IMG/VR virus record: IMGVR_UViG_2693429523_000013
Reading direction: 5' to 3' (one strand)
Length of the DNA stretch: 22,934 nt
From: a virus
Lineage: Duplodnaviria; Heunggongvirae; Uroviricota; Caudoviricetes
A program made the translations under genes and the position numbers. Below, piece by piece: positions 1-17,466 of the stretch. How positions within the stretch are numbered: position 1 is the first letter of the stretch; each line of letters opens with the position of its first letter. A model generated the notes under the pieces. It worked only from the letters and a program-made list of their open reading frames with translations. It searched no databases and had not been told where the DNA came from.

Positions 1-348
1 CCGGAGCGCGGTAATCACCGGCACGACACCAGGTATCCCGGTTGACCAGCAGCATCAGGTGATAGTGTTTTTTACCTTTGCACTCCCCAAACTCCCGGGC
101 CCAGACGTAATGCAGGGTTGTGGGATGCACGCGTTTACCTTCCCGATGCTTACGTTTCTGGTAAGCGTCGATTCGGGCTTTCAGGGCATTGATGAAGCGG
201 GATATCACAGCTGCGTCCGTTGCTGCCGGTACATCCGGGAAACGCAGGTCAACCCGCAATGCCGTCAGGCGGGGATGAACATTCAGTGCGTGCCGCACCG
301 TCTCACGAATACGTTGCTGCCAGAAGGGGTTGTATTTGTAGGTCATGG
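1..348 (-). CDS. YagK/YfjJ-family (inovirus Gp2-like) protein, partial; C-terminal part lies beyond the window start
   Basis: Minus-strand frame is open from ATG (complement of 346-348) to the window edge; translation MTYKYNPFWQQRIRETVRHALNVHPRLTALRVDLRFPD... resembles CP4-prophage YfjJ/YagK proteins as recalled. Absent from the ORF track because it runs off the window. Confidence 0.5.
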
Positions 349-1945
349 TTATATCTCCGTATGGTTCATACGGAATAGCCACATCGTAAAAAATGCGCAG
401 CCCCCCTGCTCAGGCTCTCTGTGATAACCCGAACGGTCGTCTCCGGACTGACGATTGAATTCCCGGCGTTGTTTTTTTTAATGTAAAAAACCGGTTACGG
501 ATAAGGCGTGGCGAGGGAGCTATCGTGATACGCAAAAAGAAATGCGGGGATTGCGGTAATTCGATTACTCATAATACAGTGTGTTGCCTGTATTGTGGCG
601 CTGTCGTTCCTTCCGGTTATTACCGGAAGACCGATCGTCTGCTCTGTTTACTGAGTTACTGCTGGTGCTGATTCTGGTTACCGTTTCAGGCGTCAGTGTA
701 TTTGTACTGTTGCAGTAGGTTACTGGGGAGGGATTATCAGGAATCGGCGGAGCAGAGCGACCCGCTGCGTTTGTTGTGCCAGACAGTAACGCACCGGATC
801 CCTGCAAAATGGTACCTGAATCAATCACAGTTAGGTATTCCGCCAATCCGTGATCGAATCGAGCGGAATACGCAGCCCTGACAAATACGAGCCCCCTTCA
901 GCAGATACAGGCCGGTAATACCTGAAAATCAGCCTATTACCGCCCACGCCTCCGGCACCATTCCCTTTTGATTTCGAATTCTTTGTTGTCGCTATACCGC
1001 TTAATGTTCCCGGTCCTCCGGTGCAGATAACACCGGAGTCATCGTAGCGCTGCTTCAATATTCAGGTGACATATTTCCAGACGGAAGCCGGCGCGCGATC
1101 GTAAAGTTTGTTCATTGTCAGTTCTGCCAGCCGGTTGTCAACGGCAGAGTTAAAGGCTTCCAGCTCCGCAAGGGTAAGTTTATAACGCGTGTGGGAATTC
1201 ACTTTTCCCGCGTCTCCTGACGTATTACGGGCTGCCACTTACCAGGTGTCCCGCAATACAGCCTTAGTGTTCCGTTATCGGGGATCCGGACGCACCGCAA
1301 CAACCGGGGAAGTATTTCTGGTTTAGAGCAGTGTCAAGAGGGATTTCTCAGCCCCTCACTCACCGGCTCAGTCTCAGGGCAGGAGCATTAATACGCTCAG
1401 TTCATGTCTTATACAGGAATGGGCACAGGGGGAGCTGGCGTGTCACTGCTGATTTTACGCATCAGCGTTCATGTATCTGCACTCTGATACATGAACGATT
1501 CACAGCGCTCTGTTACCGGAGAGATTTACTCTCTTAGCTTACTCTGGCAAATCCTTTACGTTACTCTCTGATGACTTCTTATATTTATAATACCAATCAG
1601 ACAGCCTTATCCCATCGGTGATATCAGTCTCCTCCTCGCCAGGAACGGGCTGACTCACTGTAACCACCTCCGAAAACAACTCTGCAATTATCAGAACGCC
1701 TGCTTCTCTCCCTGTCCTCACGAAAACTATCCCCTCTTTATCGCGCGTGCGTGCGGAAGCATCTTTTCGCAACAACCACCCGGTATACCGGTACGGCTCA
1801 GCCACCGCAACCTCCCCGTTTATCTCCTGGCGGTCACATTCCCGATTATTTTTTACGTTTCTCCCCGGTTGTTATGCCGGTGAAGGTGGCGCGCTGTTTT
1901 CATGACCACACCGGCTGGTTTAACAACATCCGGAGGAACATTCTC

Positions 1946-2152
1946 ATGGCTACCCCAGTTTCACTGATGGATGACCAGATGGTCGACATGGCATTTATCA
2001 CTCAACTGAACGGCCTGACAGATAAGTGGTTTTACAGGCTCATCAGGGATGGGGCCTTTCCGGCTCCCATCAAGCTGGGCCGCAGCTCCCGCTGGCTGAA
2101 AAGTGAAGTGGAAGCCTGGCTACAGGCGCGTATTGCACAGCCCCGCCCGTAA
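1946..2152 (+). CDS. alpA: AlpA-family phage/island transcriptional regulator (68 aa)
   Basis: MATPVSLMDDQ...LTDKWFYRLIRDGAFPAPIKLGRSSRWLKSEVEAWL is a typical AlpA HTH signature; GGAGG at 1932-1936 is 9 nt upstream of ATG 1946. The longer track ORF from 1751 has no comparable start context. Confidence 0.8.
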   Translation: MATPVSLMDDQMVDMAFITQLNGLTDKWFYRLIRDGAFPAPIKLGRSSRWLKSEVEAWLQARIAQPRP

Positions 2153-2246
2153 TTTCTGACCGTTATCCGTTCACCCGCAGCAGACGTAATCCCCGGCCTG
2201 CCGGCGGCATTCTGCTGCCTGTTATATCCCCGTGAGGAATATGAAA

Positions 2247-2849
2247 ATGAAACAACAGTATCAGACCCGCTACGAATGGCTCCACGAAAGCTACCAGAAA
2301 TGGCTGACCGGCTTCACCCGGCACGCCGTATCCTGGGGCGTGTGTCATCCGAATATCTACTACTTCCATAATCTGACGCCCGGTTGGGTGTCATTCAATG
2401 GTGAAAAACCGGAGATTGCCATCGTACCCCAGAGCCTGCACCGGCTGATTTATGGCCCTGACAAACGGGCCACGCCGCCCCTGGATGATGATCTGATTGT
2501 GAATTTATGCACCAGTGAACATCTGCTGGTTCATCATCCGATGCTGGAAGGCATTCTCCTGTCTGAATGTGAACGTCTGAGGCAGCGTTCTCTGGCAAAT
2601 AAACTGATCAGCCTCTTCCGTCAGTTTGGTGGCACGGAGTTGCGCCTCAAACTGGTCTGGCTTTGCTGGCTTGATTTAATGACCGGAAACAGCCTTGAAG
2701 ACTGGAAAGAGAACCTGAAACGGAAATCAGAAAAAGAGCTGGAGGAATGGATCATCAACCGTCAGAGGCAGAGCGCAGCACTGACGGATCTGATGGATCA
2801 GTACGTGCTCCTGGCATACCGCACAACGGTTGACGATAGCCGCAACTGA
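2247..2849 (+). CDS. hypothetical protein (200 aa), island-encoded
   Basis: Long ORF directly downstream of alpA; GAGGA at 2234-2238 is 8 nt before ATG 2247. No family recognised. Confidence 0.5.
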   Translation: MKQQYQTRYEWLHESYQKWLTGFTRHAVSWGVCHPNIYYFHNLTPGWVSFNGEKPEIAIVPQSLHRLIYGPDKRATPPLDDDLIVNLCTSEHLLVHHPMLEGILLSECERLRQRSLANKLISLFRQFGGTELRLKLVWLCWLDLMTGNSLEDWKENLKRKSEKELEEWIINRQRQSAALTDLMDQYVLLAYRTTVDDSRN

Positions 2850-4190
2850 TGCCGGTTGCTTCCGGAAGGTGTGACAAAATACGGAAATGATGATGCTCCC
2901 GGCCCCGCATGCTCACCTGCAGAGCGTGTTCGTCGTCATCATACTGAGCCATGACGGGCGTCTTAAGGGCATCCTGTCATTGCTGAGCAGGCAACACCAC
3001 CAGAGGAGCCACGGACAGGGATGTTCTTTACAGCCCGATACACGCCAGGTTCTCAGCAGACTGAATGTGCAGGTGCGGTTATTCACCAGAAATGGCATGC
3101 TGCGGTACATACCCATCCTGGTGACAATATGTACGTGGCGACAGCGATCCCGGCACTGTGGAAGAGACTCACTCAGCCTGCAGGATATTCTTTCCGGCAT
3201 CCGGGAATGTCCGCCTGAATGCAAACAGGATGATATTTGAATCCGTAATACTGTTCTTTCATCATAAATAATTTATGCAGATACAGTTAACCGTTACAGT
3301 AGCCGGTTTGTTTTACCGGGAAATAATATCCGTCAGACTGATGCCGGAACATATCTGAAACACGTTATGATGTTTTGTTATCAGAAATGTTGTATATTCT
3401 TATCCGTGGCGACAGTTTAATGCCCTCTGGTATCACCTTGGATTTGCCCCTATATTTACGGGACACGCCTCTTTTCATTGTGCTCCTTTTCAGACTTCAT
3501 TTTCCGTAAGTATTCCCCGGCATAAAGGAGGTACCTTTCTGGCGTTTATAACTCTCTTTATCGGTGACGCCGGTAATACAGGGAATACCACACCGACAAA
3601 CGAGGTATTAACAGACGATATTTCAGTGTCCATAATTTTTCTGTCCGGTTAAATAACGTCAGTCTGCTGCCCTCTGACTGTAATCATCAAAGCCGGAATG
3701 CATACCGGGTTACAACGTAAAAAAAGTGATGCTGGCCCCCGGTGCAGCTGGCGGGCGAAACATGTTTACCTTTCAATACCCCCTGTCTGCAGTCTCCACT
3801 CTTCCATCCTCTTAAGCTACGTCGGCCACATGAGTGCACTTCCATGATAACAGGTATTCCTGTCAGCATAACGAAGCAGGTTACCTTCCCTTCCTCCTGC
3901 ATTTCCTGTCAGAATGACTGTACAGCGCGCAGATTGCCTTTTTATTGACCACCTTAATATACCATTATAAACTTCTTTTTATCATGTTATTATCACCTTA
4001 TTATGTTTAATTTTTAAGCAACCGGAGAAAGAGGATGGTTCAGAAAATTTTGTCGGATAAGGTTATGAATGAAAGAACAAATGCGTATTACTCTTATTAT
4101 CTTGGAGAGCGTAATATCTCCGTACTACCCCTTAATGGTAACCGGCTCATTTAAACCGTCTGGTCTGTTTCCTCCGGCTCTACAAAAATA

Positions 4191-4868
4191 ATGTCCATCA
4201 TTTTTAATGGACACTATCGTATGAAACACCGGACCTGGATCACTGAAGCTTTACGTCTTCACTTTGAAGAACATTTACCCCGGGTTGTGGCCGGGCGTCG
4301 CCTGAGTGTACCAAAATCAACAGTTTGTAGTATGTTCGTGCGCTTTCGGAGAGCTGGCCTTTCGTGGCCTTTGCCCGCAGGCATGTCGGAGCAGGAACTT
4401 GATGCCTGCCTTTACGGACAATTTTCCACGGTACCAGTCGTACGTCCTGAAAGCACCGTTATATCCGAAGCCCCCGTGGTAAAAAAACGTCCCCGGCGGC
4501 CCAACTTCCCTTATGAGTTTAAAATCGCCTTAGTGGAGCAGTCACTACAGCCCGGAGCCTGTGTGGCGCAGATCGCCCGGGAAAACGGAATCAACGATAA
4601 CCTGCTCTTCAACTGGCGCCATCAATACCGGAAAGGTGGCCTGCTGCCTTCCGGAAAAAATATGCCGGCACTGCTTCCCGTGACGTTAACGCCGGAGCCG
4701 GATAATAAAATCCCGGCCCCCGCACAGGAACCAGAGCAGATAAATACACCGTCCGACAGTCTGTGTTGTGAGCTGGTTCTGCCGGCCGGAACTCTCAGGC
4801 TTAAAGGTAAACTGACGCCGGCGTTATTACAGACACTTATCCGCGAAATAAAAGGGAGCAGCCACTGA
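4191..4868 (+). CDS. tnpA: IS66-family accessory protein TnpA (orfA) with atypical N-terminal extension; start uncertain
   Basis: C-terminal part PRRPNFPYEFKIALVEQSLQPGACVAQIARENGINDNLLFNWRHQYRKGGL matches the IS66 TnpA HTH pattern. The first ~95 residues (..RRAGLSWPLPAGMSEQELDACLYGQ..) look like a separate transposase-type HTH. Confidence 0.65.
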   Translation: MSIIFNGHYRMKHRTWITEALRLHFEEHLPRVVAGRRLSVPKSTVCSMFVRFRRAGLSWPLPAGMSEQELDACLYGQFSTVPVVRPESTVISEAPVVKKRPRRPNFPYEFKIALVEQSLQPGACVAQIARENGINDNLLFNWRHQYRKGGLLPSGKNMPALLPVTLTPEPDNKIPAPAQEPEQINTPSDSLCCELVLPAGTLRLKGKLTPALLQTLIREIKGSSH

Positions 4869-5215
4869 TGATATCTCTCCCTGCAGGTTCGCGTATCTGG
4901 CTGGTTGCAGGTATCACCGATATGCGAAATGGCTTTAACGGCCTGGCATCAAAAGTTCAGAACGTCCTGAAGGATGACCCGTTCTCCGGACACCTGTTCA
5001 TCTTCCGCGGACGCCGGGGTGACCAGATAAAAGTGTTGTGGGCTGACAGTGACGGACTGTGCCTCTTCACCAAACGCCTGGAGCGGGGCCGCTTCGTCTG
5101 GCCAGTCACCCGTGACGGCAAGGTGCACCTTACTCCGGCTCAGTTATCCATGCTTCTTGAAGGTATCAACTGGAAGCACCCGAAACGAACGGAACGCGCT
5201 GGAATCCGCATATAA
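4868..5215 (+). CDS. tnpB: IS66-family TnpB (orf2), 115 aa
   Basis: MISLPAGSRIWLVAGITDMRNGFNGLASKVQ...GDQIKVLWADSDGLCLFTKRLERGRFVWP is the characteristic IS66 Orf2 sequence; start overlaps the tnpA stop. Confidence 0.9.
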   Translation: MISLPAGSRIWLVAGITDMRNGFNGLASKVQNVLKDDPFSGHLFIFRGRRGDQIKVLWADSDGLCLFTKRLERGRFVWPVTRDGKVHLTPAQLSMLLEGINWKHPKRTERAGIRI

Positions 5216-5234
5216 CCCGTTGTAAAGTGAGGAT

Positions 5235-6806
5235 ATGGACACCTCACTTGCTCATGAGAACGCCCGCCTGCGGGCACTGTTGCAGACGCAACAGGACACC
5301 ATCCGCCAGATGGCTGAATACAACCGCCTGCTCTCACAGCGGGTGGCGGCTTATGCTTCCGAAATCAACCGGCTGAAGGCGCTGGTTGCGAAACTGCAAC
5401 GTATGCAGTTCGGTAAAAGCTCAGAAAAACTTCGTGCAAAAACCGAACGGCAGATACAGGAAGCACAGGAGCGAATCAGCGCACTTCAGGAAGAAATGGC
5501 GGAAACGCTGGGTGAGCAATATGACCCGGTACTGCCATCCGCCCTGCGCCAGTCTTCAGCCCGTAAACCGTTACCGGCCTCACTTCCCCGTGAAACCCGG
5601 GTTATCCGGCCGGAAGAGGAATGCTGTCCTGCCTGTGGTGGTGAACTCAGTTCTCTGGGATGTGATGTGTCAGAGCAACTGGAGCTTATCAGCAGCGCCT
5701 TTAAGGTTATCGAAACACAACGTCCGAAACAGGCCTGTTGCCGGTGCGACCATATCGTGCAGGCACCAGTACCTTCAAAACCCATTGCACGCAGTTATGC
5801 CGGAGCGGGGCTTCTGGCCCATGTTGTCACCGGGAAATATGCAGACCATCTGCCGTTATACCGCCAGTCAGAAATATACCGTCGTCAGGGAGTGGAGCTG
5901 AGCCGTGCCACACTGGGGCGCTGGACAGGTGCTGTTGCTGAACTGCTGGAGCCGCTGTATGACGTCCTGCGCCAGTATGTGCTGATGCCCGGTAAAGTCC
6001 ATGCTGATGATATCCCCGTCCCGGTCCAGGAGCCGGGCAGCGGTAAAACCCGGACAGCCCGGCTGTGGGTCTACGTCCGTGATGACCGTAACGCCGGTTC
6101 ACAGATGCCCCCGGCGGTCTGGTTCGCGTACAGTCCGGACCGGAAAGGTATCCATCCACAAAATCACCTGGCCGGTTACAGCGGTGTGCTTCAGGCCGAT
6201 GCTTACGGTGGTTACCGGGCGTTATACGAATCCGGCAGAATAACGGAAGCCGCGTGTATGGCTCATGCCCGGAGAAAAATCCACGATGTGCATGCAAGAG
6301 CGCCCACCTACATCACCACGGAAGCCCTGCAGCGTATCGGTGAACTGTATGCCATCGAGGCAGAGGTCCGGGGCTGTTCAGCAGAACAGCGTCTGGCGGC
6401 AAGAAAAGCCAGAGCCGCGCCACTGATGCAGTCACTGTATGACTGGATACAGCAACAGATGAAAACACTGTCGCGTCACTCAGATACGGCAAAAGCGTTC
6501 GCATACCTGCTGAAACAGTGGGATGCACTGAACGTGTACTGCAGTAATGGCTGGGTGGAAATCGACAACAACATCGCAGAGAACGCCTTACGGGGAGTGG
6601 CCGTAGGCCGGAAAAACTGGATGTTCGCGGGTTCCGACAGCGGTGGTGAACATGCGGCGGTGTTGTACTCGCTGATCGGCACATGCCGTCTGAACAATGT
6701 GGAGCCAGAAAAGTGGCTGCGTTACGTCATTGAACATATCCAGGACTGGCCGGCAAACCGGGTACGCGATCTGTTGCCCTGGAAAGTTGATCTGAGCTCT
6801 CAGTAA
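5235..6806 (+). CDS. tnpC: IS66-family transposase TnpC (523 aa)
   Basis: N-terminal coiled-coil/leucine-zipper region, CxxC...CxxC zinc-finger motifs (CPACGG...CCRCDH) and a C-terminal DDE region typical of IS66 transposases; GAGG lies just upstream of ATG 5235. Confidence 0.9.
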
Positions 6807-6855
6807 ATATCAATACGGTTCTGACGAGTCGCTTACAAACAAAAGGCTGGTTAAC

Positions 6856-7077
6856 ATGAAAAAAATGGCAATTGTCGATAAAAAGGGTCTGGAGTACATT
6901 CCTAATATCGATCGTATGATCCGTGAGAAAGAATGTCGGGAGCTAACCACTCTTGCGAACAGCACACGCTGGAAGCTGGAGAAGGAAGGAAAATTTCCTA
7001 AGCGGATCAAGATTGGTTCCACTGCTGTTGCATATCGTCTTTCAGAAGTGCAGGCATGGATTAGGGGAGAGTGGTAA
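6856..7077 (+). CDS. AlpA-family HTH regulator (73 aa)
   Basis: ...ELTTLANSTRWKLEKEGKFPKRIKIGSTAVAYRLSEVQAWIRGE fits the AlpA/excisionase-like HTH pattern; begins 20 bp after the IS66 right end. Confidence 0.7.
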   Translation: MKKMAIVDKKGLEYIPNIDRMIREKECRELTTLANSTRWKLEKEGKFPKRIKIGSTAVAYRLSEVQAWIRGEW

Positions 7078-7128
7078 GAATTTAGACAGTGGATGTAATC
7101 CTATGGGGTAAACCCATAGGATTTGAAA

Positions 7129-8478
7129 TCACTTAAATTCAAATACGTGCGTAGTTGATGAGATTATATAATTAGGTGGTAAGTATTGAACTATTTCTCC
7201 ATCTTCTTCAAAAATATGAATAACTCTTGGGAATAATTCAGGGTGTATAGGATTTAATGCCTTCGGATTATGAAACATGTATATTGCTGTACACCATGGT
7301 TCTTGATATGAAGGTGCATTGACAAGAGCAGTAAAAGGCATTGGGGTACAGCCTTCATCAGTTTTAATACCTCTAACGATGGATTTGACATTTTTTTGTT
7401 CAATCCCTGCCACTACTCCCATCCTATCAAATTTTGGGATGGTGGCATGTGTCGCAAGTAATATGGCTGAGACATTCTCATTTTTATTAGAGCCGAAAAA
7501 ATTAGATTGTATACTTCGATTTTCAAATAAATGTTGTTCAATTTTACTTCCAGAATCCATATCTACACCATACAGATAGCTTTGTAGTGCTGGCATTGAT
7601 ATACTCATCGAAAATCTGCGTGAGTAATCGTGTAAAGCAATAATGAAAGGCTTTCCTTTTGTATGATCTAGTTCCCAATAGCATAATTTTAAGGGTTCAG
7701 GTTTATGCCTAACTTTCTTTAATAGAGTGCGGGCAAATTTGAATGGCATTTGTTCTTTTACATATCTCTGAAGATCTTCTACTGCCTCATGATCAAGTAT
7801 CAATTTCTCGGTAGGTTCCTCTTGTTCTGCAACTGTGGCAGCTTCTACAGCAATATCAATGCCATTTTTTGAGATAATATAATCAGGTTGAGCATAATCT
7901 CTGCATATTACGAAATCCATTTCGTAGAAAACTGCGTTTAGATAAAGTTCGAATAAGCGAGAGTTAAATGAAGCACTCTGGAAATCTCTGATGAATATTC
8001 CATCAGGATCTTTACACCAATAAGCTAACTCTTGCATAACAATAAATGCAGGATAGTGTTTGGGTTCCTCAAGTAGCATTCTTAGATAAACGTTTTTTTT
8101 ATGTTCTGGAACTTTGGCTAGGAATATTGAAAATGCCGACTCTGATTCGTCACCCTGTATAAAACAACCGTTCTTGTGTAGTGATAATAGCTCTGGTATG
8201 GCTTTTTCCATATCAGTAATTAAATCATCTTTAGATTCACGGGATACAATTACTTTAATCGCTCTAAATTTTTTATCTAAATCCCTACCTAGAAATATAG
8301 CGTTGTAATCATTATCTATTTTACAAAAAACAATTGTTGCTAAGATCGTGACATCATCCTTTATAAATTTGAACCAACAGATTTCCTCCGAAAAGGTTTT
8401 TACGTATGGTGTACGACCATAGAAAAATACATCAAATTGTTCTTTACTGATTTCTAGCATTTTGTGACTTGTTGTCAT
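7129..8478 (-). CDS. hypothetical protein, 449 aa, AT-rich cargo gene of unknown function
   Basis: Uninterrupted 1350-nt minus-strand ORF; AAGGA is 7 nt upstream of the ATG (complement of 8476-8478). Visibly AT-rich compared with flanking DNA (by eye, not computed). No confident family assignment. Confidence 0.7.
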   Translation of the reverse strand: MTTSHKMLEISKEQFDVFFYGRTPYVKTFSEEICWFKFIKDDVTILATIVFCKIDNDYNAIFLGRDLDKKFRAIKVIVSRESKDDLITDMEKAIPELLSLHKNGCFIQGDESESAFSIFLAKVPEHKKNVYLRMLLEEPKHYPAFIVMQELAYWCKDPDGIFIRDFQSASFNSRLFELYLNAVFYEMDFVICRDYAQPDYIISKNGIDIAVEAATVAEQEEPTEKLILDHEAVEDLQRYVKEQMPFKFARTLLKKVRHKPEPLKLCYWELDHTKGKPFIIALHDYSRRFSMSISMPALQSYLYGVDMDSGSKIEQHLFENRSIQSNFFGSNKNENVSAILLATHATIPKFDRMGVVAGIEQKNVKSIVRGIKTDEGCTPMPFTALVNAPSYQEPWCTAIYMFHNPKALNPIHPELFPRVIHIFEEDGEIVQYLPPNYIISSTTHVFEFK

Positions 8479-8501
8479 AGAAGAATCCTTTATGCAAATT
8501 A

Positions 8502-8696
8502 TCAGCCTTTAGGTGTTATTCCTTGTTTTATTAGTTCGGCACGAGCCAGTTCTTTTAGCCAGTTACCTAAGCTCATCCCTTCTTTGGCAGCGACATTAAC
8601 CATTTGTTCTTTTAATTCTGGGTTAATACGGACTTGGAATGCTGGTGCTTTACCTGCACCTTTCGGTTGTTTATCACGTTGAATGATAGTTGACAT
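8502..8696 (-). CDS. ribbon-helix-helix (Arc/CopG-like) DNA-binding protein, 64 aa; likely regulator of the downstream 449-aa gene
   Basis: ..FQVRINPELKEQMVNVAAKEGMSLGNWLKELARAEL.. matches the beta-strand/helix/helix pattern of Arc-type repressors. Its stop is 23 nt upstream of the 449-aa gene start on the same strand. Confidence 0.6.
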   Translation of the reverse strand: MSTIIQRDKQPKGAGKAPAFQVRINPELKEQMVNVAAKEGMSLGNWLKELARAELIKQGITPKG

Positions 8697-8738
8697 GTGT
8701 GTACCTATTGCTTAGTATGATTCTTGATAGGTACACAC
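8697..8738. promoter_or_regulatory. 12-bp perfect inverted repeat (GTGTGTACCTAT-N18-ATAGGTACACAC) directly upstream of the RHH gene; candidate operator or translational hairpin
   Basis: Arms at 8697-8708 and 8727-8738 are exact reverse complements. On the minus strand, the arm adjacent to the start codon contains the only SD-like sequence (AGGT) for the RHH gene. Confidence 0.4.
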
Positions 8739-8835
8739 CTTATCATGTTTTATTGCTATATAACAACGCCCTGCAGTGCTCGCAACACATACAGGGCGTC
8801 TAACCACCAACGATAGCAACAGTATCGAGGTAGCT

Positions 8836-9039
8836 ATGAGAAATCATACCACACACCCGCAAGGGCGGGATTCGCACAACCTGAATAAATACATCTGGCG
8901 TTTTATCGCCCTGAGCACCGCACAACCACGCGTAATACACATCGAGGCCGCCAGCGAACAGGAAGCCCGCCAGCAATCCCCAACTGGCTACGTGATGATA
9001 TTCGCCGCCCGTATTCGTCAGGAGGTGTGCCGTGCTTAA
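8836..9039 (+). CDS. hypothetical small protein (67 aa), first gene of the divergent plus-strand operon
   Basis: GAGG at 8827-8830 precedes ATG 8836. The track ORF from 8776 is longer but lacks an RBS. No family recognised. Confidence 0.35.
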   Translation: MRNHTTHPQGRDSHNLNKYIWRFIALSTAQPRVIHIEAASEQEARQQSPTGYVMIFAARIRQEVCRA

Positions 9040-9217
9040 AACCTTCCGTGTATTTGCCCGAGCTGTTAACCCACTGGGCCACACAATTGGTATCACTCAG
9101 AACGTGAAGGCTGTTAATGTTCAGACGGCTATTGCTGCGGTGAGAAGCGAATCATCAGAATATGGCTTATCACAAGTCATTATTTCAGCAGTGTATGAAT
9201 TAAAAGAGGTGCATTAA
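9032..9217 (+). CDS. hypothetical small protein (61 aa)
   Basis: GTG start at 9032 with GGAGG at 9021-9025 (6-nt spacing); overlaps the previous stop, suggesting translational coupling. Confidence 0.4.
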   Translation: MLKTFRVFARAVNPLGHTIGITQNVKAVNVQTAIAAVRSESSEYGLSQVIISAVYELKEVH

Positions 9218-9408
9218 TGAAGGAAATTACATTACACGAAGCCGCTGAACGTGCGCACCAGACAGAAATTATTTGCCGCCTTCTTGAGGTATACCCGAAC
9301 AAAATTACAGATGCTGATATATCCGCGCTGGCGAGCCTACTGGCGCGCCTTTCGGGAAGTGTCGCTAGTTTCCTGATTGAGGAAGAAAGTAAGCTGGTGG
9401 GGGATTAA
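9217..9408 (+). CDS. hypothetical small protein (63 aa)
   Basis: ATG overlaps the upstream stop (TAATG); AGAGG lies upstream. Confidence 0.45.
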   Translation: MKEITLHEAAERAHQTEIICRLLEVYPNKITDADISALASLLARLSGSVASFLIEEESKLVGD

Positions 9409-9630
9409 ATGAATACAGAACGGGAAGTCTTTTTTAAATTGTTAGCATGTGCAGAAAGTTCATTAACTTTAAATAATTCAGCAAAAGCAATATTAAATAT
9501 GTGGCTTGATTGCATAAATGACAATGAAGATGCAAATATTGCTTATGGCCTGTTGTCACTTATTGATGAATCAGCAGAAAAACTCAATGACGCAATAAAT
9601 AGTGCCCTGCTATCAAATAAGTCGAGTTAA
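9409..9630 (+). CDS. hypothetical small protein (73 aa), AT-rich
   Basis: Start immediately follows the previous stop and is preceded by a G-rich SD-like stretch. Confidence 0.45.
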   Translation: MNTEREVFFKLLACAESSLTLNNSAKAILNMWLDCINDNEDANIAYGLLSLIDESAEKLNDAINSALLSNKSS

Positions 9631-9647
9631 GTCGAGGAATAAATAAT

Positions 9648-9947
9648 ATGGAAATGAAAAATTCTGGCTTTATTGCCAGCGGCCCCGCTCGGCCTGAATT
9701 TATGAACGGCGATATTTACCGCGATAAATACGGCGGCACGGTAACGATTAAAGGCGTGGCAGAACGGCGCATCACTTACCGCCGTGAGGGGTATAGCTAT
9801 GACTGCGTGATGCCTGTTTATCAGTTCCGGCGTGATTTTTCCCTGGTATATGCCGCACCCCGCAGTAAGCCCATCAGCAGGGAAAAAGCGCGGGGAAACA
9901 TCCAGAAAATGAAAAGCATGATTAACGCATTCAGGGGCAAAAAATGA
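9648..9947 (+). CDS. hypothetical protein (99 aa)
   Basis: GAGGAA precedes the ATG; the stop overlaps the primase start (ATGA). Confidence 0.5.
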   Translation: MEMKNSGFIASGPARPEFMNGDIYRDKYGGTVTIKGVAERRITYRREGYSYDCVMPVYQFRRDFSLVYAAPRSKPISREKARGNIQKMKSMINAFRGKK

Positions 9948-11695
9948 AACTGGCACCGAACTTAAAAAAACAGCCACGCGACAGACTGACAGAGGTAATC
10001 ATCTTTGCAGGTAGTGATGCGTGGAGCCATGCGAAAGAGTGGCGGGAATGGGCGGGTAAACATATTGCCGCCGACGATGTGCCGCCTGTCGTGCTGGCTG
10101 ATGAGCAACTGAAAAATATCACCGATTACCGGATCATTGATGAAGATCGTCAGTGTGTGCGTGTTTACCGCGCAGGACATATCACAGAGCACAGCATGAC
10201 GCAGATTGTTACGTTACTGGCTGTGGCTGGAGTGAAGACCGTACACGAATACGCGGGGATTACTGACACCAGCCCAGTGGATTTATCCGAGCAGTTGCCG
10301 CGACTCAAAGAGGAATGCGAGCGTGGGGAAAGTCTGGTGCTTAATCTTCCGACGAAGCAAAAGGCGCAACTTTCACAGATGGCAGACAGTGAACGTGCAC
10401 AACTACTTGCCGATCGCTTTGATGGTGTGTGTGTTCATGCAGAAAGTGAAATCGTCCACGTATGGCGCGGCGGGGTATGGTGTCCGGTCAGCACAATGGA
10501 GCTGAGCCGCGAAATGGTGGCGATCTATTCAGAGCACAGGGCCACGTTCAGCAAACGTGTAATCAATAACGCCGTGGAAGCGTTAAAAGTTATTGCCGAC
10601 CCCATGGGGGAGCCGTCCGGTGATTTGCTACCGTTCACTAATGGTGTGCTTAACCTGAAAACGGGGGAATTTTCTCCGCACTCGCCGGAGCACTGGAGCA
10701 CCACGCACAATGGCATTGAGTACACGCCACCAGTAGCAGGGGAAAACATCCGCGATAATGCGCCAAATTTCCATAAATGGCTTGAACATGCTGCAAGAAA
10801 AGACCCGCGTAAGATGATGCGTATATGTGCCGCGTTATACATGATTATGGCGAACCGCTACGACTGGCAGATGTTCATTGAGGCCACCGGAGACGGGGGA
10901 AGCGGTAAGAGTACATTTACCCATATTGCCACCCTGCTTGCTGGCAAACAGAACACCGTAAGCGCGGAGATGACATCACTCGATGATGCAGGAGGGCGCG
11001 CGCAGGTTGTCGGGAGTCGTCTTATCGTCCTTGCCGATCAGCCGAAATATACGGGGGAAGGCACGGGCATCAAGAAAATCACGGGAGGCGATCCCGTTGA
11101 AATTAACCCGAAATATGAGAAGCGATTCACGACGATAATAAGGGCGGTGGTACTGGCAACCAATAACGACCCGATGATCTTTACCGAACGGGCCGGAGGT
11201 GTGTCACGCCGTCGGGTGATTTTCCGGTTCGACAACATTGTAAGGGAGGACGAAAAAGACAAGGAATTACCGGAAAAGATAGCGGCAGAAATCCCCGTAA
11301 TTATCCGCCGCTTGCTGGCTAATTTTGCTGCCCCTGAAAAGGCACGGGCTTTATTACTGGAACAGCGTGACGGTGATGAAGCTCTGGCAATAAAGCAGCA
11401 AACGGATCCGGTTGTTGAGCTTTGCGCGGCGCTGGAGTTTCTGGAGGAAGCTCGTGGGCTAATGATGGGCGGTGGTGGTGACACCGTGAAGTACACGACC
11501 AGAAACAGCCTTTACCGTGTCTATATGGCCTTCATGGCATACACAGGAAAGGGGAAATGTTTGAGCGTGAATGAGTTCGGAAAGGCTATGAGGTCAGCGG
11601 CGAAAGTTTACGGATATGAATATATTACGCGAAAAGTTAAGGGAGTCACGCAGACCAACGCAACGACTACTGATGATTGCGATGCGTTTTTATAA
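9944..11695 (+). CDS. phage/plasmid primase-helicase, P4-alpha C-terminal type (D5_N-like plus SF3 NTPase), 583 aa
   Basis: Walker A GDGGSGKST and Walker B-like RLIVLADQP; overall architecture is that of P4-family / PICI replication proteins as recalled. An iteron array lies directly downstream. Confidence 0.85.
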   Translation: MKLAPNLKKQPRDRLTEVIIFAGSDAWSHAKEWREWAGKHIAADDVPPVVLADEQLKNITDYRIIDEDRQCVRVYRAGHITEHSMTQIVTLLAVAGVKTVHEYAGITDTSPVDLSEQLPRLKEECERGESLVLNLPTKQKAQLSQMADSERAQLLADRFDGVCVHAESEIVHVWRGGVWCPVSTMELSREMVAIYSEHRATFSKRVINNAVEALKVIADPMGEPSGDLLPFTNGVLNLKTGEFSPHSPEHWSTTHNGIEYTPPVAGENIRDNAPNFHKWLEHAARKDPRKMMRICAALYMIMANRYDWQMFIEATGDGGSGKSTFTHIATLLAGKQNTVSAEMTSLDDAGGRAQVVGSRLIVLADQPKYTGEGTGIKKITGGDPVEINPKYEKRFTTIIRAVVLATNNDPMIFTERAGGVSRRRVIFRFDNIVREDEKDKELPEKIAAEIPVIIRRLLANFAAPEKARALLLEQRDGDEALAIKQQTDPVVELCAALEFLEEARGLMMGGGGDTVKYTTRNSLYRVYMAFMAYTGKGKCLSVNEFGKAMRSAAKVYGYEYITRKVKGVTQTNATTTDDCDAFL

Positions 11696-11711
11696 AAAAT
11701 GGCAATGGTTA

Positions 11712-11934
11712 TCTACCTTGTCTACCTGACTGAAAGAAAATACTTTTATTTCAATGTATTAATGCAGGTAGATAACTATTTTTCACTGTCTACCTGTTAT
11801 CTACCTTATCTACCCATTTTTGTAGACAGGTAAGGAGACGGGTAGAGATGAGGTAGACAGCTATTTGGGGCTGTCTACCTCCCTGAAACCCGCGCCATTA
11901 CTGGCCTGATAACTAATCAGGTAGACAAGGTAGA
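11712..11934. repeat. iteron array; candidate replication origin of the satellite-like module
   Basis: About 12 copies of the hexamer TCTACC / GGTAGA in both orientations (TCTACC at 11712, 11721, 11789, 11800, 11809, 11874; GGTAGA at 11767, 11841, 11852, 11920, 11929, plus a partial copy at 11822). An AT-rich spacer sits at 11731-11766, immediately 3' of the primase gene. Confidence 0.6.
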
Positions 11935-11984
11935 CAAGGTGGTGGTGCACAAAAAACTTTTTAAACGAGGGGGTAAAAATAAAA

Positions 11985-12242
11985 ATGCACACATCAGGAA
12001 AACTGAACAAACATATAAAGCCACATTACCGCGCCCTTGATATGGCTGAACACTGGCTAAGGGTGGCGATTAAGGCAATAGACCGCAACGCCGGGGAAGG
12101 ATACGCGAAAGCACATCCCGAACTGATAAGCGCATTCATGACAACGGCGGCTGCAAACTTTGCCACGCTGACCGAACGGGAGATTGCTGAAGCGGAGGAA
12201 GTGACAACAATCAATATTAAGTCCGGAGAGCAGGCAGCATGA
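11985..12242 (+). CDS. hypothetical protein (85 aa)
   Basis: GAGGGGG lies upstream of the ATG; the stop overlaps the ssb start (ATGA). Confidence 0.5.
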   Translation: MHTSGKLNKHIKPHYRALDMAEHWLRVAIKAIDRNAGEGYAKAHPELISAFMTTAAANFATLTEREIAEAEEVTTINIKSGEQAA

Positions 12243-12688
12243 CGGCGCAAATATCAGTTTACGGGCGGTTGGTGGACGACCCGCAGACAAAACAGACCAG
12301 CAAGGGCACCCCCATGACGCTGGCGCGTATGGCGGTATCACTGCCCTGCAGTCAGTCGGATGACGGTCTGGCGACGTTGTGGTTATCTGTCCTGGCGTTT
12401 GGCAGACAAGCCGACGCGCTGGCAAAGCATCACAAAGGCGAACTCCTGAGCGTGGCGGGTAACATGCAGATGAGCCAGTGGACTGGACAGAACGGCGAAA
12501 CGCGGCAGGGCTGGCAGGTTATCGCAGACAGCGTAATCAGTGCGCGATCGGTGCGACCGGGCGGCAAAAAAGGCCAACAGGGGCAGGCTACTGACGCACT
12601 GAACAGAGCAAAACAACAGGCAGATCAGCAAGGAAGCCAGCCACCAGAGGGAGATAATGAGCAATGGGGAGATGATATCCCGTTTTAA
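12239..12688 (+). CDS. ssb: single-stranded DNA-binding protein (149 aa)
   Basis: OB-fold region aligns by eye with E. coli SSB (ISVYGRLVDDPQ.., WLSVLAFGRQAD, GELLSVAGNMQMSQWTGQNGE..); Gly/Gln-rich linker; acidic C-terminal tip ...WGDDIPF matches the SSB DDDIPF tail. Confidence 0.85.
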   Translation: MTAQISVYGRLVDDPQTKQTSKGTPMTLARMAVSLPCSQSDDGLATLWLSVLAFGRQADALAKHHKGELLSVAGNMQMSQWTGQNGETRQGWQVIADSVISARSVRPGGKKGQQGQATDALNRAKQQADQQGSQPPEGDNEQWGDDIPF

Positions 12689-12904
12689 ATATTGCCAATA
12701 AAAAAAGCCGGAAAAAATAAATTTTCCGGCATGCTACATAAATCCCGACCAAAGGGAGTGAAGATATTAACACTAATTGTCCGCACTGAAGTTGTCACCC
12801 CAAAACTTTATACAACATTGCACTCGGTTGCATGTGTTCGCATGACAAATATCGGTGATAGCATATATCCACAATTATTTTTAATGAATGCAAAGAGGAT
12901 GCGT

Positions 12905-13945
12905 ATGGTTGATTTATATTCGCCTACCCAGCTTGTACAGGTGGTTAATGCTGTAGATGTACAAAAACAACTAAATGCGTTGTTTACCAGTTTGTTTTTT
13001 ACTCGCTCGGTAATGTTTGGATCGCGCGATATTATTCTTGATACAATCGACGATCCAAATATCCCAATTGCAGCGTTTTGTTCTCCTATGGTGGGTAGTA
13101 AAGTTTCACGTGACGAAGGGTACGAATCAAAAACAATTCGTCCAGGCTATATGAAGCCGAAAAGCAGCATTGATCCAAATAAGTTAGCTGTGCGCCCTGC
13201 TGGTGTATCACCTGAGCAATACAATGCTTTTGGGGCGCGTAATATTAAAGTTAAACAGGCGATTGTAAATCAAGCTAAAGCTATTCGTGCACGTATTGAA
13301 TGGCTTGCCGTTCAGGCAATCACAACGGGGAAAAATATCATTGAGGGCGATGGTATTGAACGTTATGAGCTGGACTGGAATATTAAACCACAAAATATCA
13401 TCACTCAGTCTGGCGGTACTGAGTGGTCAGGTAAGGATAAAGAAACTTTTGATCCAAATGATGATATTGAGAGCTACGCAGAATTTAGTGAGGGCGTCAC
13501 TAATATCATCATTATGGGCGGTAATGTATGGAAGAAATACCGTTCATTCAGAGCGATAAAAGAGGCTCTGGATACCCGTCGTGGTTCTAATTCCGAACTG
13601 GAAACGGCCCTTAAAGACCTTGGTGATTCGGTGAGTTTTAAAGGATATATGGGCGATGTTGCGATTGTTGTTTACAGCGGGCGTTATACCGACGAGGACG
13701 GAACTGAAAAACATTTCCTTGATCCTGATTTGATGGTGCTTGGCAATACGGCTCTTCAGGGGATTGTCGCCTATGGCGGTATTCAGGATCCGGAGCTAAT
13801 CCGAATGGGGCTGACTAAAGCCGAACTTGCACCGAAAAACTATATTGTGCCTGGTGATCCGGCTATTGAATATGTGCAGACACATTCAGCACCACAGCCA
13901 ATACCGGCCCGCATCAATCGTTTTGTTACCGTTCGCATTGGCTAA
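12905..13945 (+). CDS. major capsid protein, lambda gpE family (346 aa), divergent from lambda
   Basis: Aligns by eye along its length with lambda gpE (PGYMKPK.., NIITQSGGTEWSGKDK.., DTRRGSNSELETA identical, C-terminal ..GDPA.E...QSAP..). AGAGGA is 5 nt before ATG 12905; the track ORF start at 12692 adds 71 residues with no homology. Confidence 0.8.
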   Translation: MVDLYSPTQLVQVVNAVDVQKQLNALFTSLFFTRSVMFGSRDIILDTIDDPNIPIAAFCSPMVGSKVSRDEGYESKTIRPGYMKPKSSIDPNKLAVRPAGVSPEQYNAFGARNIKVKQAIVNQAKAIRARIEWLAVQAITTGKNIIEGDGIERYELDWNIKPQNIITQSGGTEWSGKDKETFDPNDDIESYAEFSEGVTNIIIMGGNVWKKYRSFRAIKEALDTRRGSNSELETALKDLGDSVSFKGYMGDVAIVVYSGRYTDEDGTEKHFLDPDLMVLGNTALQGIVAYGGIQDPELIRMGLTKAELAPKNYIVPGDPAIEYVQTHSAPQPIPARINRFVTVRIG

Positions 13946-13954
13946 GGGGGAGCA

Positions 13955-14296
13955 ATGGCTACTCATTACACTGAACTCATGGCTGGCACTGAAGCACTGG
14001 TGACTACGCTGGGGATATTTTCAGCTAATAAAGGGGTAATTCCTGCATTTACGCCACTGATGCAGGAAGATGCAACAGGTGCACTGGTGGTATGGGATGG
14101 TTCGAGCGTAGGTAAAGCGGTTTATGTTTCCGCTGTACAAATCGACACCGCGAAAAAAACACAGGCTCAGGTCTATAAGACAGGTGTCTTAAATGTTGAT
14201 GCTCTGAACTGGCCTGAGTCTGTAAAAGAACTGTCAGTAAAGATTGCAGCGTTTGTTGGCTCAGGTATTTCTGTTCAGCCGCTGGCTCGTGTGTAA
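13955..14296 (+). CDS. head decoration protein, lambda gpD-like (113 aa)
   Basis: ..TPLMQEDATGALVVWDGSSVGKAVYVSAVQ...YKTGVLNVDALNWPE...AAFVGSGISVQPL parallels lambda gpD (..TPLM...KLVAWDG...YKSGTF..VLWPE..AFAGTAISIV) as recalled. AAGGGGGA RBS present. Confidence 0.7.
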   Translation: MATHYTELMAGTEALVTTLGIFSANKGVIPAFTPLMQEDATGALVVWDGSSVGKAVYVSAVQIDTAKKTQAQVYKTGVLNVDALNWPESVKELSVKIAAFVGSGISVQPLARV

Positions 14297-14307
14297 AGGG
14301 GGATACA

Positions 14308-14691
14308 ATGCAAAATGATTACAATGACCTTAAGCCAATTGCCGAAATGATGTACCCGAATCCAGCTGTAGAGGAATTAAAAGCTATCGCTGACAAAATG
14401 TGTTTAAGCGAGCGCCTTGTTGATATGAATCAGGTGATGGAAATTACAACCCTGAGTCGGCGTACACTGCTAAACCTTGAGGCTAGTGGAGAGTTCCCGG
14501 AGCGTGTGCAGGTTACGGAAGGGCGTAAGGCCTGGTATTTAAGTGAAGTGATCGACTGGATAAATAATATTCCTCGCGCTTCTGAATATTGCCGCGTACC
14601 TGTCCCAAAAAAGCCAGATGCGGCGCTATGCCTCAAGATTGAGCGTGTACGCCGCAATGCACGGGATGGTCGCTATAAGCTGATTGGTTGA
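14308..14691 (+). CDS. AlpA-type HTH domain protein with ~40-aa N-terminal extension (127 aa)
   Basis: Residues ~40-90 (MNQVMEITTLSRRTLLNLEASGEFPERVQVTEGRKAWYLSEVIDWI) fit the AlpA HTH pattern; AAGGGGGA RBS before ATG 14308. Confidence 0.6.
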   Translation: MQNDYNDLKPIAEMMYPNPAVEELKAIADKMCLSERLVDMNQVMEITTLSRRTLLNLEASGEFPERVQVTEGRKAWYLSEVIDWINNIPRASEYCRVPVPKKPDAALCLKIERVRRNARDGRYKLIG

Positions 14692-14744
14692 TGAAATTAG
14701 GGCCCGCTCTGGCTGGCGGGTCCTTTCCGGCGATCTGACAGGCT

Positions 14745-14912
14745 ACGGGGCGTCAGGCGCGCGGATTTTCGCTATTTATGAAAATTTTCCGGTTTAAGGC
14801 GTTTCCGTTCTTCTTCGTCGTAACTTAATGTTTTTATTTAAAATACCCCCTGAAAAGAAAGGAAACGACAGGTGCTGAAAGCGAGCTTTTTGGCCTCTGT
14901 CGTTTCCTTTCT
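14745..14912 (+). promoter_or_regulatory. lambda-type cos region: cosN-like site (~14745-14762) and cosB with three CGTTTCC-core R elements
   Basis: 14760-14936 reads almost exactly as the recalled lambda left-end/cosB sequence upstream of Nu1. R3 is at 14791-14797, inverted R2 at 14861-14867 and R1 at 14901-14907; R2/R1 lie in a 16-bp perfect inverted repeat (14856-14871 / 14897-14912). The 12-mer at 14748-14759 is GGGCGTCAGGCG rather than the recalled lambda GGGCGGCGACCT. Confidence 0.7.
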
Positions 14913-14936
14913 CTGTTTTTGTCCGTGGAATGAACA

Positions 14937-15488
14937 ATGGAAGTCAACAAAAAGCAGCTGGCTGACATTTTCGGTGCGAGTATCCGTACCATTCAGAACT
15001 GGCAGGAACAGGGAATGCCCGTTCTGCGAGGCGGTGGCAAGGGTAATGAGGTGCTTTATGACTCTGCCGCCGTTATAAGATGGTATGCCGAAAGGGATGC
15101 TGAAATTGAGAACGAAAAGCTGCGCCGGGAAGTTGAAGAACTGCGGCAGGCCAGCGAGACAGATCTCCAGCCAGGGACTATTGAGTACGAACGCCATCGA
15201 CTTACGCGTGCGCAGGCCGACGCACAGGAACTGAAGAATGCCAGCGAAACAGGTGAGGTAATTGACACTGCATTTGCGACTTATGCCTTGTCGAAATTAA
15301 CTGGGGAAGTTGGAGCAATCATTGATAGTCTTCCACTTGCGATCTGTCGACAGTTTCCTGGCATGGAAAAACGGTATCAGGACTTCATTAAGATGGAGGT
15401 CAGTAAAGCATTTATTCGAGCTTACCAGATCTCAGATAACATTCCAGATATGGCTGAAAGGTATATCAAGGATAATCAGCGAAGTTAA
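14937..15488 (+). CDS. Nu1: terminase small subunit Nu1, chimeric: lambda-type N-terminal DNA-binding domain with a divergent C-terminal domain
   Basis: First ~100 residues (MEVNKKQLADIFGASIRTIQNWQEQGMPVLRGGGKGNEVLYDSAAVI.WYAERDAEIENEKLRREVEELRQASE.DLQPGTIEYERHRLTRAQADAQELKNA) match lambda gpNu1 as recalled; the C-terminal ~80 residues are similar in length but clearly different. Confidence 0.9.
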   Translation: MEVNKKQLADIFGASIRTIQNWQEQGMPVLRGGGKGNEVLYDSAAVIRWYAERDAEIENEKLRREVEELRQASETDLQPGTIEYERHRLTRAQADAQELKNASETGEVIDTAFATYALSKLTGEVGAIIDSLPLAICRQFPGMEKRYQDFIKMEVSKAFIRAYQISDNIPDMAERYIKDNQRS

Positions 15489-15544
15489 AACAAATGAAAC
15501 CATAGGTAGGAAGAGTGCTTAGGTGGTTCTTTGTTGCTTAAAAG

Positions 15545-15577
15545 TCGCCAGTAAAACTGGCGATAGATTTTATTTGT
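15545..15577 (+). terminator. rho-independent terminator-like hairpin after Nu1
   Basis: 8-bp stem TCGCCAGT/ACTGGCGA (15545-15552 / 15557-15564) with a 4-nt loop, followed by the T-rich run tagattttatttg. Lies between convergent Nu1 and the DUF2971-like gene. Confidence 0.45.
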
Positions 15578-15594
15578 CAAAAGCATTTGACCTT

Positions 15595-16500
15595 TTAAGG
15601 TAGTGGTACTATGGATATTTTTCTGTCGTTCCCAAATGAACTTTTAAATAATTTCGCTCTTGGATACATTTTAACTAGTGATGCGACTTCATCGAACTCG
15701 CTGGCATCAAAAAGAGGACCAAGTATTACAGATTTTAACTCAAAAGGGTGAAATTTTAAGTCGCTATATTGACCAGTGCTATTTGGCCTAGCGTAGGTTG
15801 AAATTCTCCACTCTCTTTCATATGCCCATTCTTCTGTTTTTATGAATATTATCTCATTATTGATATATTCAATTGACTTATTGTCTGGCATGAAAAGCAA
15901 CTCGGCCATCCCTTCAGCAGTGTGAGTTAGAGGCATTTCATCTGTGTATTTCATAGGTTTGGCTATTAACCAAGCGCTATCCAGAAAGTCTACACAATCA
16001 AATTCGATAACTATACCTTTATATTTATCGGCATAGTGATTCCACATAGGAGTGATTATAGGGCTCTCAGATAAACACAAAATCCTTCTGTTATTAAGCA
16101 TTCCTCGCCAGACATCTTTCATTTCTTGTATTGCCGCAGGAGCGCCAATCCCAACTGGTGGAATGTTTACCATTTCTTGAAATCTTTCAATTAATCCTGC
16201 GGGTATGCCTAAAGGAAATGACTTTTGGAAATCACTTAGCATTGTTCTAATTCTAGGGTTTAAATTTTGTATGTCTTCTCTGGGGGTAATCAACTCCGCT
16301 ATTAACTTGCGGGCTAAAGCTTTGCCAATATTAATTTCGTTAATACCAGGCATAACTTCTCTTGGAACATCAAAAGGGTCATTAAATAGGACCGGAGAAC
16401 TCCATCTAAGGCTGCATGAATCAAGAACAATCTTCGCGGTATTCAACGACATATACTTATAAAATGTTGAGCGTTCATGCATTCTGTTGGGTGAGCGCAT
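15595..16500 (-). CDS. DUF2971-like protein (301 aa), AT-rich moron
   Basis: N-terminal ..STFYKYMSLNTAKIVLDSCSLRWSSPVLFNDPFDV.. matches the recalled DUF2971 signature (YKY.S...L...lw.S.p..FNDPFD). AGAGGA is 4 nt upstream of the ATG (complement of 16498-16500). AT-rich by eye. Confidence 0.7.
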   Translation of the reverse strand: MRSPNRMHERSTFYKYMSLNTAKIVLDSCSLRWSSPVLFNDPFDVPREVMPGINEINIGKALARKLIAELITPREDIQNLNPRIRTMLSDFQKSFPLGIPAGLIERFQEMVNIPPVGIGAPAAIQEMKDVWRGMLNNRRILCLSESPIITPMWNHYADKYKGIVIEFDCVDFLDSAWLIAKPMKYTDEMPLTHTAEGMAELLFMPDNKSIEYINNEIIFIKTEEWAYEREWRISTYARPNSTGQYSDLKFHPFELKSVILGPLFDASEFDEVASLVKMYPRAKLFKSSFGNDRKISIVPLP

Positions 16501-17425: not shown

Positions 17426-17466
17426 TCATGGCCCTTCGGGGCCATTTTCTCTCTGTGGAGGAGTCT

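Follow-up and report, generated by a model that had tools for sequence, protein, structure and literature searches.

The 22,934-bp viral sequence IMGVR_UViG_2693429523_000013 (Caudoviricetes), hereafter the window, is one entire contig of a short-read draft assembly (CYDL01000040.1, assembly GCA_001284945.1) and carries three genes of the AlpA family of helix-turn-helix (HTH) proteins. Four successive segments make it up: a fragment of a CP4-44-type genomic island (1-4137), an insertion sequence (IS; 4138-6836), a satellite (6837-16644), and the distal part of the late operon of the satellite's helper prophage (16645-22934). The window is very probably a mosaic of three mobile elements and one IS, with alpA genes in just two of these elements, and the second and third alpA genes together would belong to one integrase-less helper-embedded phage-inducible chromosomal island (HE-PICI) of the 11capE type, lodged within the capsid gene E of a lambdoid prophage. 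Since the record holds no sequence beyond the contig ends, related genomes were compared instead, and the identities, boundaries, attachment (att) features, and module conservation given below come directly from these comparisons. Position 1 of the window lies in a CP4 gene of the YagK/YfjJ type and position 22934 in a lambdoid tape-measure gene; both are repeated within Escherichia coli genomes, which explains why the contig breaks at these points. A scan of the window for tRNA and tmRNA genes found none.

All three alpA open reading frames (ORFs) proposed in the initial annotation, starting at 1946, 6856, and 14308, proved genuine, each scoring above the gathering cut-off of 21 bits for Pfam PF05930 (Phage_AlpA). 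AlpA1 (1946-2152, + strand, 68 aa; 32.2 bits, E = 1e-7) is the HTH gene of the CP4-44-type island and is annotated as WP_000235212.1 at the matching place in the genomes of E. coli STN0717-20 (L003) and E. coli HS (L004). AlpA2 (6856-7077, + strand, 73 aa; 56.4 bits, E = 2.7e-15), the alpA of the integration zone of the HE-PICI, matches at 73 of 73 residues the alpA of 11capE from strain NRG857c, which has two extra C-terminal residues. AlpA3 (14308-14691, + strand, 127 aa; 35.8 bits, E = 7.6e-9), the paralogue of the late zone, is identical to the 11capE copy at all 127 positions; its entire length is covered by a match to PHROG 2790 ("excisionase and transcriptional regulator", E = 1e-49), it also matches the AlpA-family structure PDB 8c3t (E = 2e-9 with the single sequence, 6.5e-13 with a profile), and its HTH occupies residues 36-88 rather than the N terminus. 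Pairwise identities among the three proteins are 27-36%, indicating that the genes are old, distant paralogues and not recent duplicates.

The setting of AlpA2 can be read from relatives in which the satellite is intact. On the left, L001, L002, and L005 show an 82-codon N-terminal fragment of the capsid gene followed by a tyrosine integrase gene (int); on the right, they show the C-terminal fragment of the split capsid gene followed by the genes FI to H. AlpA2 lies directly 3' of int in all intact relatives, with the int stop codon 1 nt before the alpA start in L001 (int 10784-12019, alpA from 12021), L002, L005, L012, and L019 (11capE). The window retains just the last ~19 nt of int, including the stop codon (6837-6854, + strand), which align with the 3' end of int in L001 and L012. 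The integrase, in members a tyrosine enzyme of the HE-PICI clade, is the only defining feature of the family that the window copy lacks. L012, a draft contig of another assembly, carries a satellite that shares 99.7% identity across 6836-16644 and has retained int and attL. The remark in the initial annotation that no integrase gene is visible, and that an IS66 insertion beside the second alpA stands where one would be expected, is thus borne out: no Phage_integrase match was obtained among the called genes of 1-18478, the genes from 16649 on are lambda E', FI, FII, Z, U, V, G, T, and H, and int occupies exactly the place of the IS in L001, L002, L005, L012, and L019. The earlier view that the second alpA opens a satellite likewise holds.

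On its right side the satellite ends within helper E. The attR identity block of 10 nt, AGCCGAAGCA (16635-16644, + strand), spans codons 79-82 of helper E and is also found in both attL and attR of L001. In L012 both arms carry AACCCAAGCA in its place, and hence the att block co-varies between the arms; read in the frame of E, both versions are synonymous. The attP of HE-PICIs has been described as bearing a doubled motif, tgTGTATTGCantgTGTATTGCa, ~81 bp upstream and ~132 bp downstream of its center (PMC10111431). The copy upstream of the crossover, TGTATTGC-N4-TGTATTGC, is present at 16538-16557 (+ strand) and ends ~81 nt before the att center, agreeing with the published spacing; in L001 and L012, the other copy is found ~132 nt beyond the attL core, and the window has lost it along with int. 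Beyond attR, the reading frame continues through the C-terminal 260 codons of E (16645-17425, + strand, from codon ~82), and FI, FII, Z, U, V, G, T, and H, the tape-measure gene cut by the contig end, follow on the + strand, which is also that of alpA and the primase gene. This distal part of the helper late operon (16645-22934, + strand), recognized by its Pfam matches, contains no alpA. The window lacks the left half of E, which is present in L012; when the attL of L012 is joined to the attR of the window, an intact 341-aa E results that is 97.4% identical to the uninterrupted E of L006 (strain CFSAN018748). The nesting of a satellite inside a prophage is genuine, and this part of the initial annotation stands. 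The right-hand part of the window is also common: in a megablast search against 5,426 complete E. coli genomes, 6836-22934 was matched at ~98% in many strains.

AlpA3 belongs to the same element. Its gene begins 12 nt past the satellite decoration gene, and a lambda-type cos region (14715-14936) and a gene for a small terminase subunit (TerS) of the Nu1 family lie downstream, so that the description of the third alpA as cos-proximal holds. It had further been claimed that each alpA sits at the edge of a distinct module. For AlpA3 this fails: the order capsid, decoration, 127-aa AlpA, cos, and TerS is seen within single-integrase PICIs at five att sites, namely the capsid gene capE, the portal gene (L006), tRNA-Ile, cspD/clpS, and tRNA-Pro (L008-L010), and in 51 of the 57 IMG/VR contigs that share the cosN of the satellite, AlpA3 lies just upstream of cosN, with its start at -436 nt in nearly all of them. 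The homologue in a Buttiauxella PICI, with ~50% protein identity, is internal as well. Between alpA2 and alpA3 there is no att block, TGTATTGC arm motif, or integrase, and the comparison with related genomes that the initial annotation itself suggested reveals both genes together within one attL/attR pair, with one int. Nor do the related genomes show a single integrase and att pair bracketing the window as a whole. Of the 5,426 complete E. coli genomes, 408 carry the AlpA3 gene, and its full-length homologues are confined to Enterobacteriaceae; no close homologue was found among 50,697 deposited phage genomes, the best being 31% identical over 72% of the protein. AlpA3 is a constant component of the late module of PICIs and does not mark the boundary of a third element.

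The segment at 4138-6836 (+ strand) is an ISCro1-like IS of the IS66 family with terminal inverted repeats at 4138-4159 and 6815-6836 (opening with GTAACCGGCTC and closing with GAGTCGCTTAC); its right end is ambiguous by 1 nt, and its genes are tnpA (4191-4868), tnpB (4868-5215), and tnpC (5235-6806), all on the + strand. End to end, it shares 97.6% identity with an annotated ISCro1 copy of L006, which served as a control and has an 8-bp duplication, GCTGATTT, at its flanks. That copy is a simple insertion between FI and the head-tail joining gene of the L006 prophage. The IS of the window ends 19-20 nt upstream of AlpA2; its left flank reads CCTTAATG and its right flank AAACAAAA. By its tnpA, tnpB, and tnpC genes and inverted repeats it is a member of the family, but the 8-bp target-site duplication is missing and its junctions are unlike those of a simple insertion, which indicates that the sequences now flanking the IS were not neighbors before it arrived. 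The adjacency of the CP4-44-type fragment and the satellite is therefore IS-mediated or an assembly misjoin, and the notion of tandem integration, the other half of the initial proposal, does not stand.

Both junctions recur elsewhere. The junction of the right IS end with alpA is identical at contig ends of two other assemblies (L013 and L014), and that of the CP4-44-type island with the left IS end is found at contig ends of two further assemblies (L017 and L018), one of which is the assembly of L013. In the sister assembly GCA_001277615.1, the two junctions are found on different contigs, each of which ends inside the IS, and among these assemblies only the window contig spans it. Three models may account for the join: a misjoin by the assembler of two simple insertions, an inversion between IS copies, or a deletion that left one copy. 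An inversion would be expected to leave reciprocal junctions, one joining the 5' part of int, through AAACAAAA, to GTAACCGG, and one joining CGCTTAC to CCTTAATG and the rest of the 305-aa gene cut by the IS. The only further hit in searches with the junctions alone was an IS-alpA junction of independent origin, in the finished TUM9757 genome (L007, NZ_CP128931.1). There, in L007 8767-14389, nested ISCro1/IS66 copies lie directly 5' of the alpA of an HE-PICI, and int and the helper segment from Nu1 to E' are missing.

The CP4-44-type fragment (1-4137, with genes on either strand) was recognized by its near-identity to the islands of L003 and L004. It differs from L003 by one base, near 4127 (reported as 100.0%), and is 99.9% identical to L004, collinear with both. 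In these genomes its counterpart sits between cobU/tRNA-Asn and yeeA, and the island continues with a YeeP-like GTPase, Ag43, and a YeeU/CbtA toxin-antitoxin pair; this location and gene content identify it as CP4-44. The fragment begins with the YagK/YfjJ gene (inovirus Gp2 family) cut by the contig end at the left of the window and also contains a Hha-family gene (1062-1238, - strand), a gene for a 200-aa hypothetical protein, and the first 103 nt, up to position 4137, of the gene for the 305-aa hypothetical protein. The CP4-44-type island of L003 and L004 has no integrase. The assignment of the first alpA to a CP4-type remnant is accordingly upheld, and 1-4137 would very probably be an internal piece of a decayed CP4-44-type island, with AlpA1 as the putative regulator of that island itself.

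That the three alpA genes mark the edges of three nested or tandem AlpA-bearing elements is an idea readily prompted by the occurrence of three genuine AlpA genes within 12.7 kb, each near a change in gene content and GC content, and by the standing of AlpA as a good signature of satellites (PMC10111431). It founders on the intact relatives, where a single int and a single att pair enclose AlpA2 and AlpA3, and on the recurrence of the capsid-decoration-AlpA3-cos order, which is seen in 51 of 57 viral contigs and in PICIs at five att sites; we regard it as highly improbable. A related idea would take the late module (capsid, decoration, AlpA3, cos, and TerS) to be the remnant of a second satellite or phage that fused in tandem and whose inner att site was deleted. 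Identity to 11capE is 98% in the late module, as against 74% in the primase region, a disparity which suggests that the module is exchanged as a cassette, and the satellite is near-identical to the helper in cos and over the first ~100 residues of TerS. However, mosaic recombination explains such an identity pattern without a second integrative element, whole PICIs with a variety of integrases normally show a four-zone order that includes the late module (as also in PMC10111431), and AlpA3 is without a close homologue in the phage genomes searched. This fusion is, in our estimate, slightly less probable still than three AlpA-bearing elements.

The identities of the elements would stand even if the join of CP4-44, IS, and satellite were an assembly artefact that arose from separate simple insertions of ISCro1 in CP4-44 and in the satellite int, with the wrong flanks joined through the repeat. 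The window is a complete short-read draft contig, the junctions in GCA_001277615.1 lie on separate contigs ending inside the IS, the missing target duplication is equally expected from a chimeric join, and there is no complete genome with the same arrangement. Against this stand the unbroken assembly path through the 2.7-kb IS, as a single-copy IS would give, and the IS-associated loss of int beside the same alpA in the finished TUM9757 genome. An artefact is on balance rather unlikely, and a real rearrangement is the probable explanation, because an unbroken path through a repeat of this length most simply reflects an IS present in a single copy. The independent ISCro1-associated loss of int in TUM9757 makes such an event in the window plausible, and IS-mediated grounding of HE-PICIs may be recurrent.

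Several observations nonetheless tell against our account of the window as a mosaic of a CP4-44 piece, an IS, and a grounded HE-PICI inside its helper. Among the 5,426 complete E. coli genomes, none has the whole arrangement with at least 80% of the window covered. The link from CP4-44 through the IS to alpA depends on a short-read assembly path through a 2.7-kb repeat, and int together with the left half of the helper would be either elsewhere in the genome, if the join arose by inversion, or gone, if by deletion. The activator or excisionase role given to AlpA2 is carried over from EcCICFT073 and P4, that of AlpA3 is predicted from its family, and an AlphaFold2 model of AlpA3 built on a 17-sequence alignment reached a mean pLDDT (predicted local distance difference test score) of 50 and a pTM (predicted template modeling score) of 0.22, too poor for a fold search.

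The late-zone paralogue is the one point of some interest. AlpA-related proteins act as excisionases. By its family, AlpA3 is a putative winged-helix DNA-binding regulator or directionality factor, and by its position it would be expressed with the late genes. Its full-length conservation across Enterobacteriaceae, its cosN-proximal place, and the absence of a close phage homologue in the set searched lead us to entertain, as a tentative and rather doubtful proposal, that, instead of being a redundant excisionase, it might serve PICIs with lambdoid helpers as a dedicated late or packaging factor; it may take the form of a cos-proximal DNA-binding protein or of a late-operon regulator working with the Nu1-type TerS. 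Two candidate identities were rejected. AlpA3 does not align with c1501 of EcCICFT073 despite the equivalent position of the latter. Homology to Rpp was judged by similarity to RppA or RppC, an N-terminal winged HTH, and a C-terminal dimerization helix. The HTH of AlpA3 is not N-terminal, and sequence and profile searches of the PDB gave only 8c3t as a meaningful match, a negative that comes without a direct comparison of AlpA3 with RppA and from a PDB copy in which the presence of RppC was not checked. The structure of RppC has been solved crystallographically (PMC6739421). No relevant literature was found on PDB entry 8c3t, and we found no discussion of AlpA3 in the consulted parts of the HE-PICI and EcCICFT073 literature.

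The gene order of the satellite follows the four zones of HE-PICIs, which are, in order, Integration, Bro/dynamic, Replication, and Late. After alpA, the dynamic zone begins with the 449-aa anti-phage defence protein PD-T7-1 (7129-8478, - strand; GC ~34%; full-length PADLOC match, E = 1e-153), in a variable slot filled in relatives by DUF2971 and SWIM genes, an Abi protein, a BRO-N protein, or a TIR protein. A regulatory pair follows, assigned by PHROG matches and the annotation of relatives, in which an Arc-like/YlcI-family gene (8502-8696, - strand) diverges from an Icd-like or repressor-like gene (8836-9039, + strand); the pair (8502-9039) matches PHROG 228 and PHROG 6196. The replication zone, all on the + strand, holds a DUF4222 gene (9648-9947), a D5-type primase/helicase (9944-11695; Pfam D5_N, DUF5906, and Pox_D5), an 85-aa ORF (11985-12242), and a gene for a single-stranded DNA-binding protein (12239-12688; Pfam SSB). 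The late zone, also on the + strand, comprises a major capsid gene of the E family (12905-13945; Phage_cap_E), a head-decoration gene of the D family (13955-14296; HDPD), AlpA3, the cos region, and the Nu1-family TerS (14937-15488; Phage_Nu1, E = 3.6e-84). The satellite capsid protein is merely 42% identical to helper E. A second variable slot, adjoining attR, is occupied by a DUF2971 cargo gene (15595-16500, - strand; PADLOC PDC-S31, a candidate defence family, E = 2.5e-32), whereas L007 and L019 have HEPN and DUF262 genes there. A promoter and terminator scan of the satellite gave no enrichment over shuffled sequences, and no C4/isrK-type immunity RNA, a feature known from some PICIs, reached the gathering score in an Rfam scan. 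A like architecture occurs in Buttiauxella (L078, CP133838.1, 1-13658), with a 449-aa minus-strand ORF in the slot of PD-T7-1; this PICI is flanked by a Nu1-family gene and a Packaging_FI gene and may itself be a helper-embedded satellite.

Both TerS and the cos region show a patchwork of likeness to the helper. In lambda Nu1, the N-terminal part binds cosB and the C-terminal part binds the large terminase subunit (TerL). The satellite TerS is 73% identical overall to NohD of the helper and looks chimeric, its first ~100 residues being ~99% identical to NohD and its C-terminal ~80 strongly diverged. The lambda-type cos region (cosQ, cosN, and cosB; 14715-14936, + strand), delimited by alignment with satellite and helper cos regions, is near-identical to that of the helper save in the cosN 12-mer, which in the satellite is the variant GGGCGTCAGGCG (14748-14759), as opposed to the lambda version GGGCGGCGACCT; the latter, allowing up to two mismatches, is absent from the window. 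The portal-type pair of L006 carries the lambda 12-mer in its satellite and GGGCGGAAGGCG in its helper. We considered and rejected the variant cosN as satellite-specific, as it also occurs before phage-type TerS genes in L031, L065, and L076, and in L065 it stands alongside a TerL 99% identical to that of the helper.

From the published data on 11capE and EcCICFT073 (PMC10111431, PMC6092414, PMC6739421) together with the anatomy of the satellite, the life of the intact element would probably run as follows. Induction of the helper would lead to the composite being excised and replicated; read-through and AlpA-dependent activation would bring about expression of int and alpA; and excision of the satellite would restore E. 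The cos, TerS, capsid, and decoration proteins of the satellite could then bias assembly and packaging in its favor while the TerL, portal, protease, and tail of the helper are used. For EcCICFT073, the published work presents AlpA as the helper-induced activator of the island (PMC6092414, PMC6739421), and AlpA2 may by analogy be an activator or excisionase. In the window copy, the ISCro1-like element appears to have replaced everything to the left of alpA2, that is, int and attL as well as the helper segment running from Nu1 into the 5' part of E. With these gone, the satellite as assembled could not excise and E could not be rebuilt. We infer that the satellite has been grounded as a fixed island that still carries its PD-T7-1 and DUF2971/PDC-S31 genes.

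The case corrects the rule of thumb that one alpA equals one integrative element: because an enterobacterial PICI of this type carries two AlpA-family genes, counts of alpA overestimate the number of islands. It also offers a clean example of a grounded helper-embedded satellite, which bears on how defence islands become fixed in genomes. There is nothing new in kind, as HE-PICIs at exactly this site were described in 2023.

The CP4-44- and CP4-57-type cryptic islands of E. coli are the source of the name of the AlpA family. The window resembles them in that AlpA1 belongs to a cobU-yeeA island alongside Ag43 and YeeU/CbtA-type genes, but it holds merely an internal 4.1-kb piece of such an island. 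Like the capsid-forming PICIs (cf-PICIs), the satellite encodes its own major capsid protein, decoration protein, and TerS. Unlike them, it is without portal, protease/scaffold, TerL, and head-tail connector genes; hence, it cannot build capsids alone and falls outside the definition of a cf-PICI. Some likeness is seen to EcCICFT073, the model PICI of Gram-negative bacteria (Fillol-Salom et al. 2018, PMC6092414; 2019, PMC6739421), which shares the int/alpA/primase backbone, its own E-family capsid and decoration genes followed by cos, and dependence on lambdoid helpers. However, EcCICFT073 is integrated in the chromosome and not in a prophage gene, its packaging is reported to be redirected by Rpp and not by a TerS of its own (PMC6739421), and its c1501, which follows the decoration gene, and RppA are without similarity to AlpA3 or to the Nu1-type TerS, with the proviso that AlpA3 and RppA were not compared directly. 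In L006 (NZ_CP028192.1, 9754-20600), a related HE-PICI carrying another integrase interrupts the portal gene of its lambdoid helper.

The closest match among known systems is the founding HE-PICI itself, Eco567.11capE (L019), which sits in the capsid gene E of an icd-integrated prophage of E. coli NRG857c; in experiments with mitomycin C the composite excises and replicates, and then the satellite excises (PMC10111431). A further 201 elements at the site E:Phage_cap_E:80 were reported in 2023 by Tommasini, Mageeney & Williams (PMC10111431). The window differs from 11capE in several respects: its int and attL are missing and the IS is in their place; its primase region is a different allele, with just ~74% identity; its cargo consists of PD-T7-1 and DUF2971 genes, as opposed to a hypothetical gene and HEPN and DUF262 genes; and its TerS is full-length where that of 11capE is a 64-aa remnant. 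Both share the capE site at codon ~80, the 10-bp identity block, the doubled TGTATTGC motif, the four-zone order, and a late module (12032-14974) that is 98% identical. The system is thus an already known one, an HE-PICI at site E:Phage_cap_E:80, and the copy in the window is a truncated derivative of a member.

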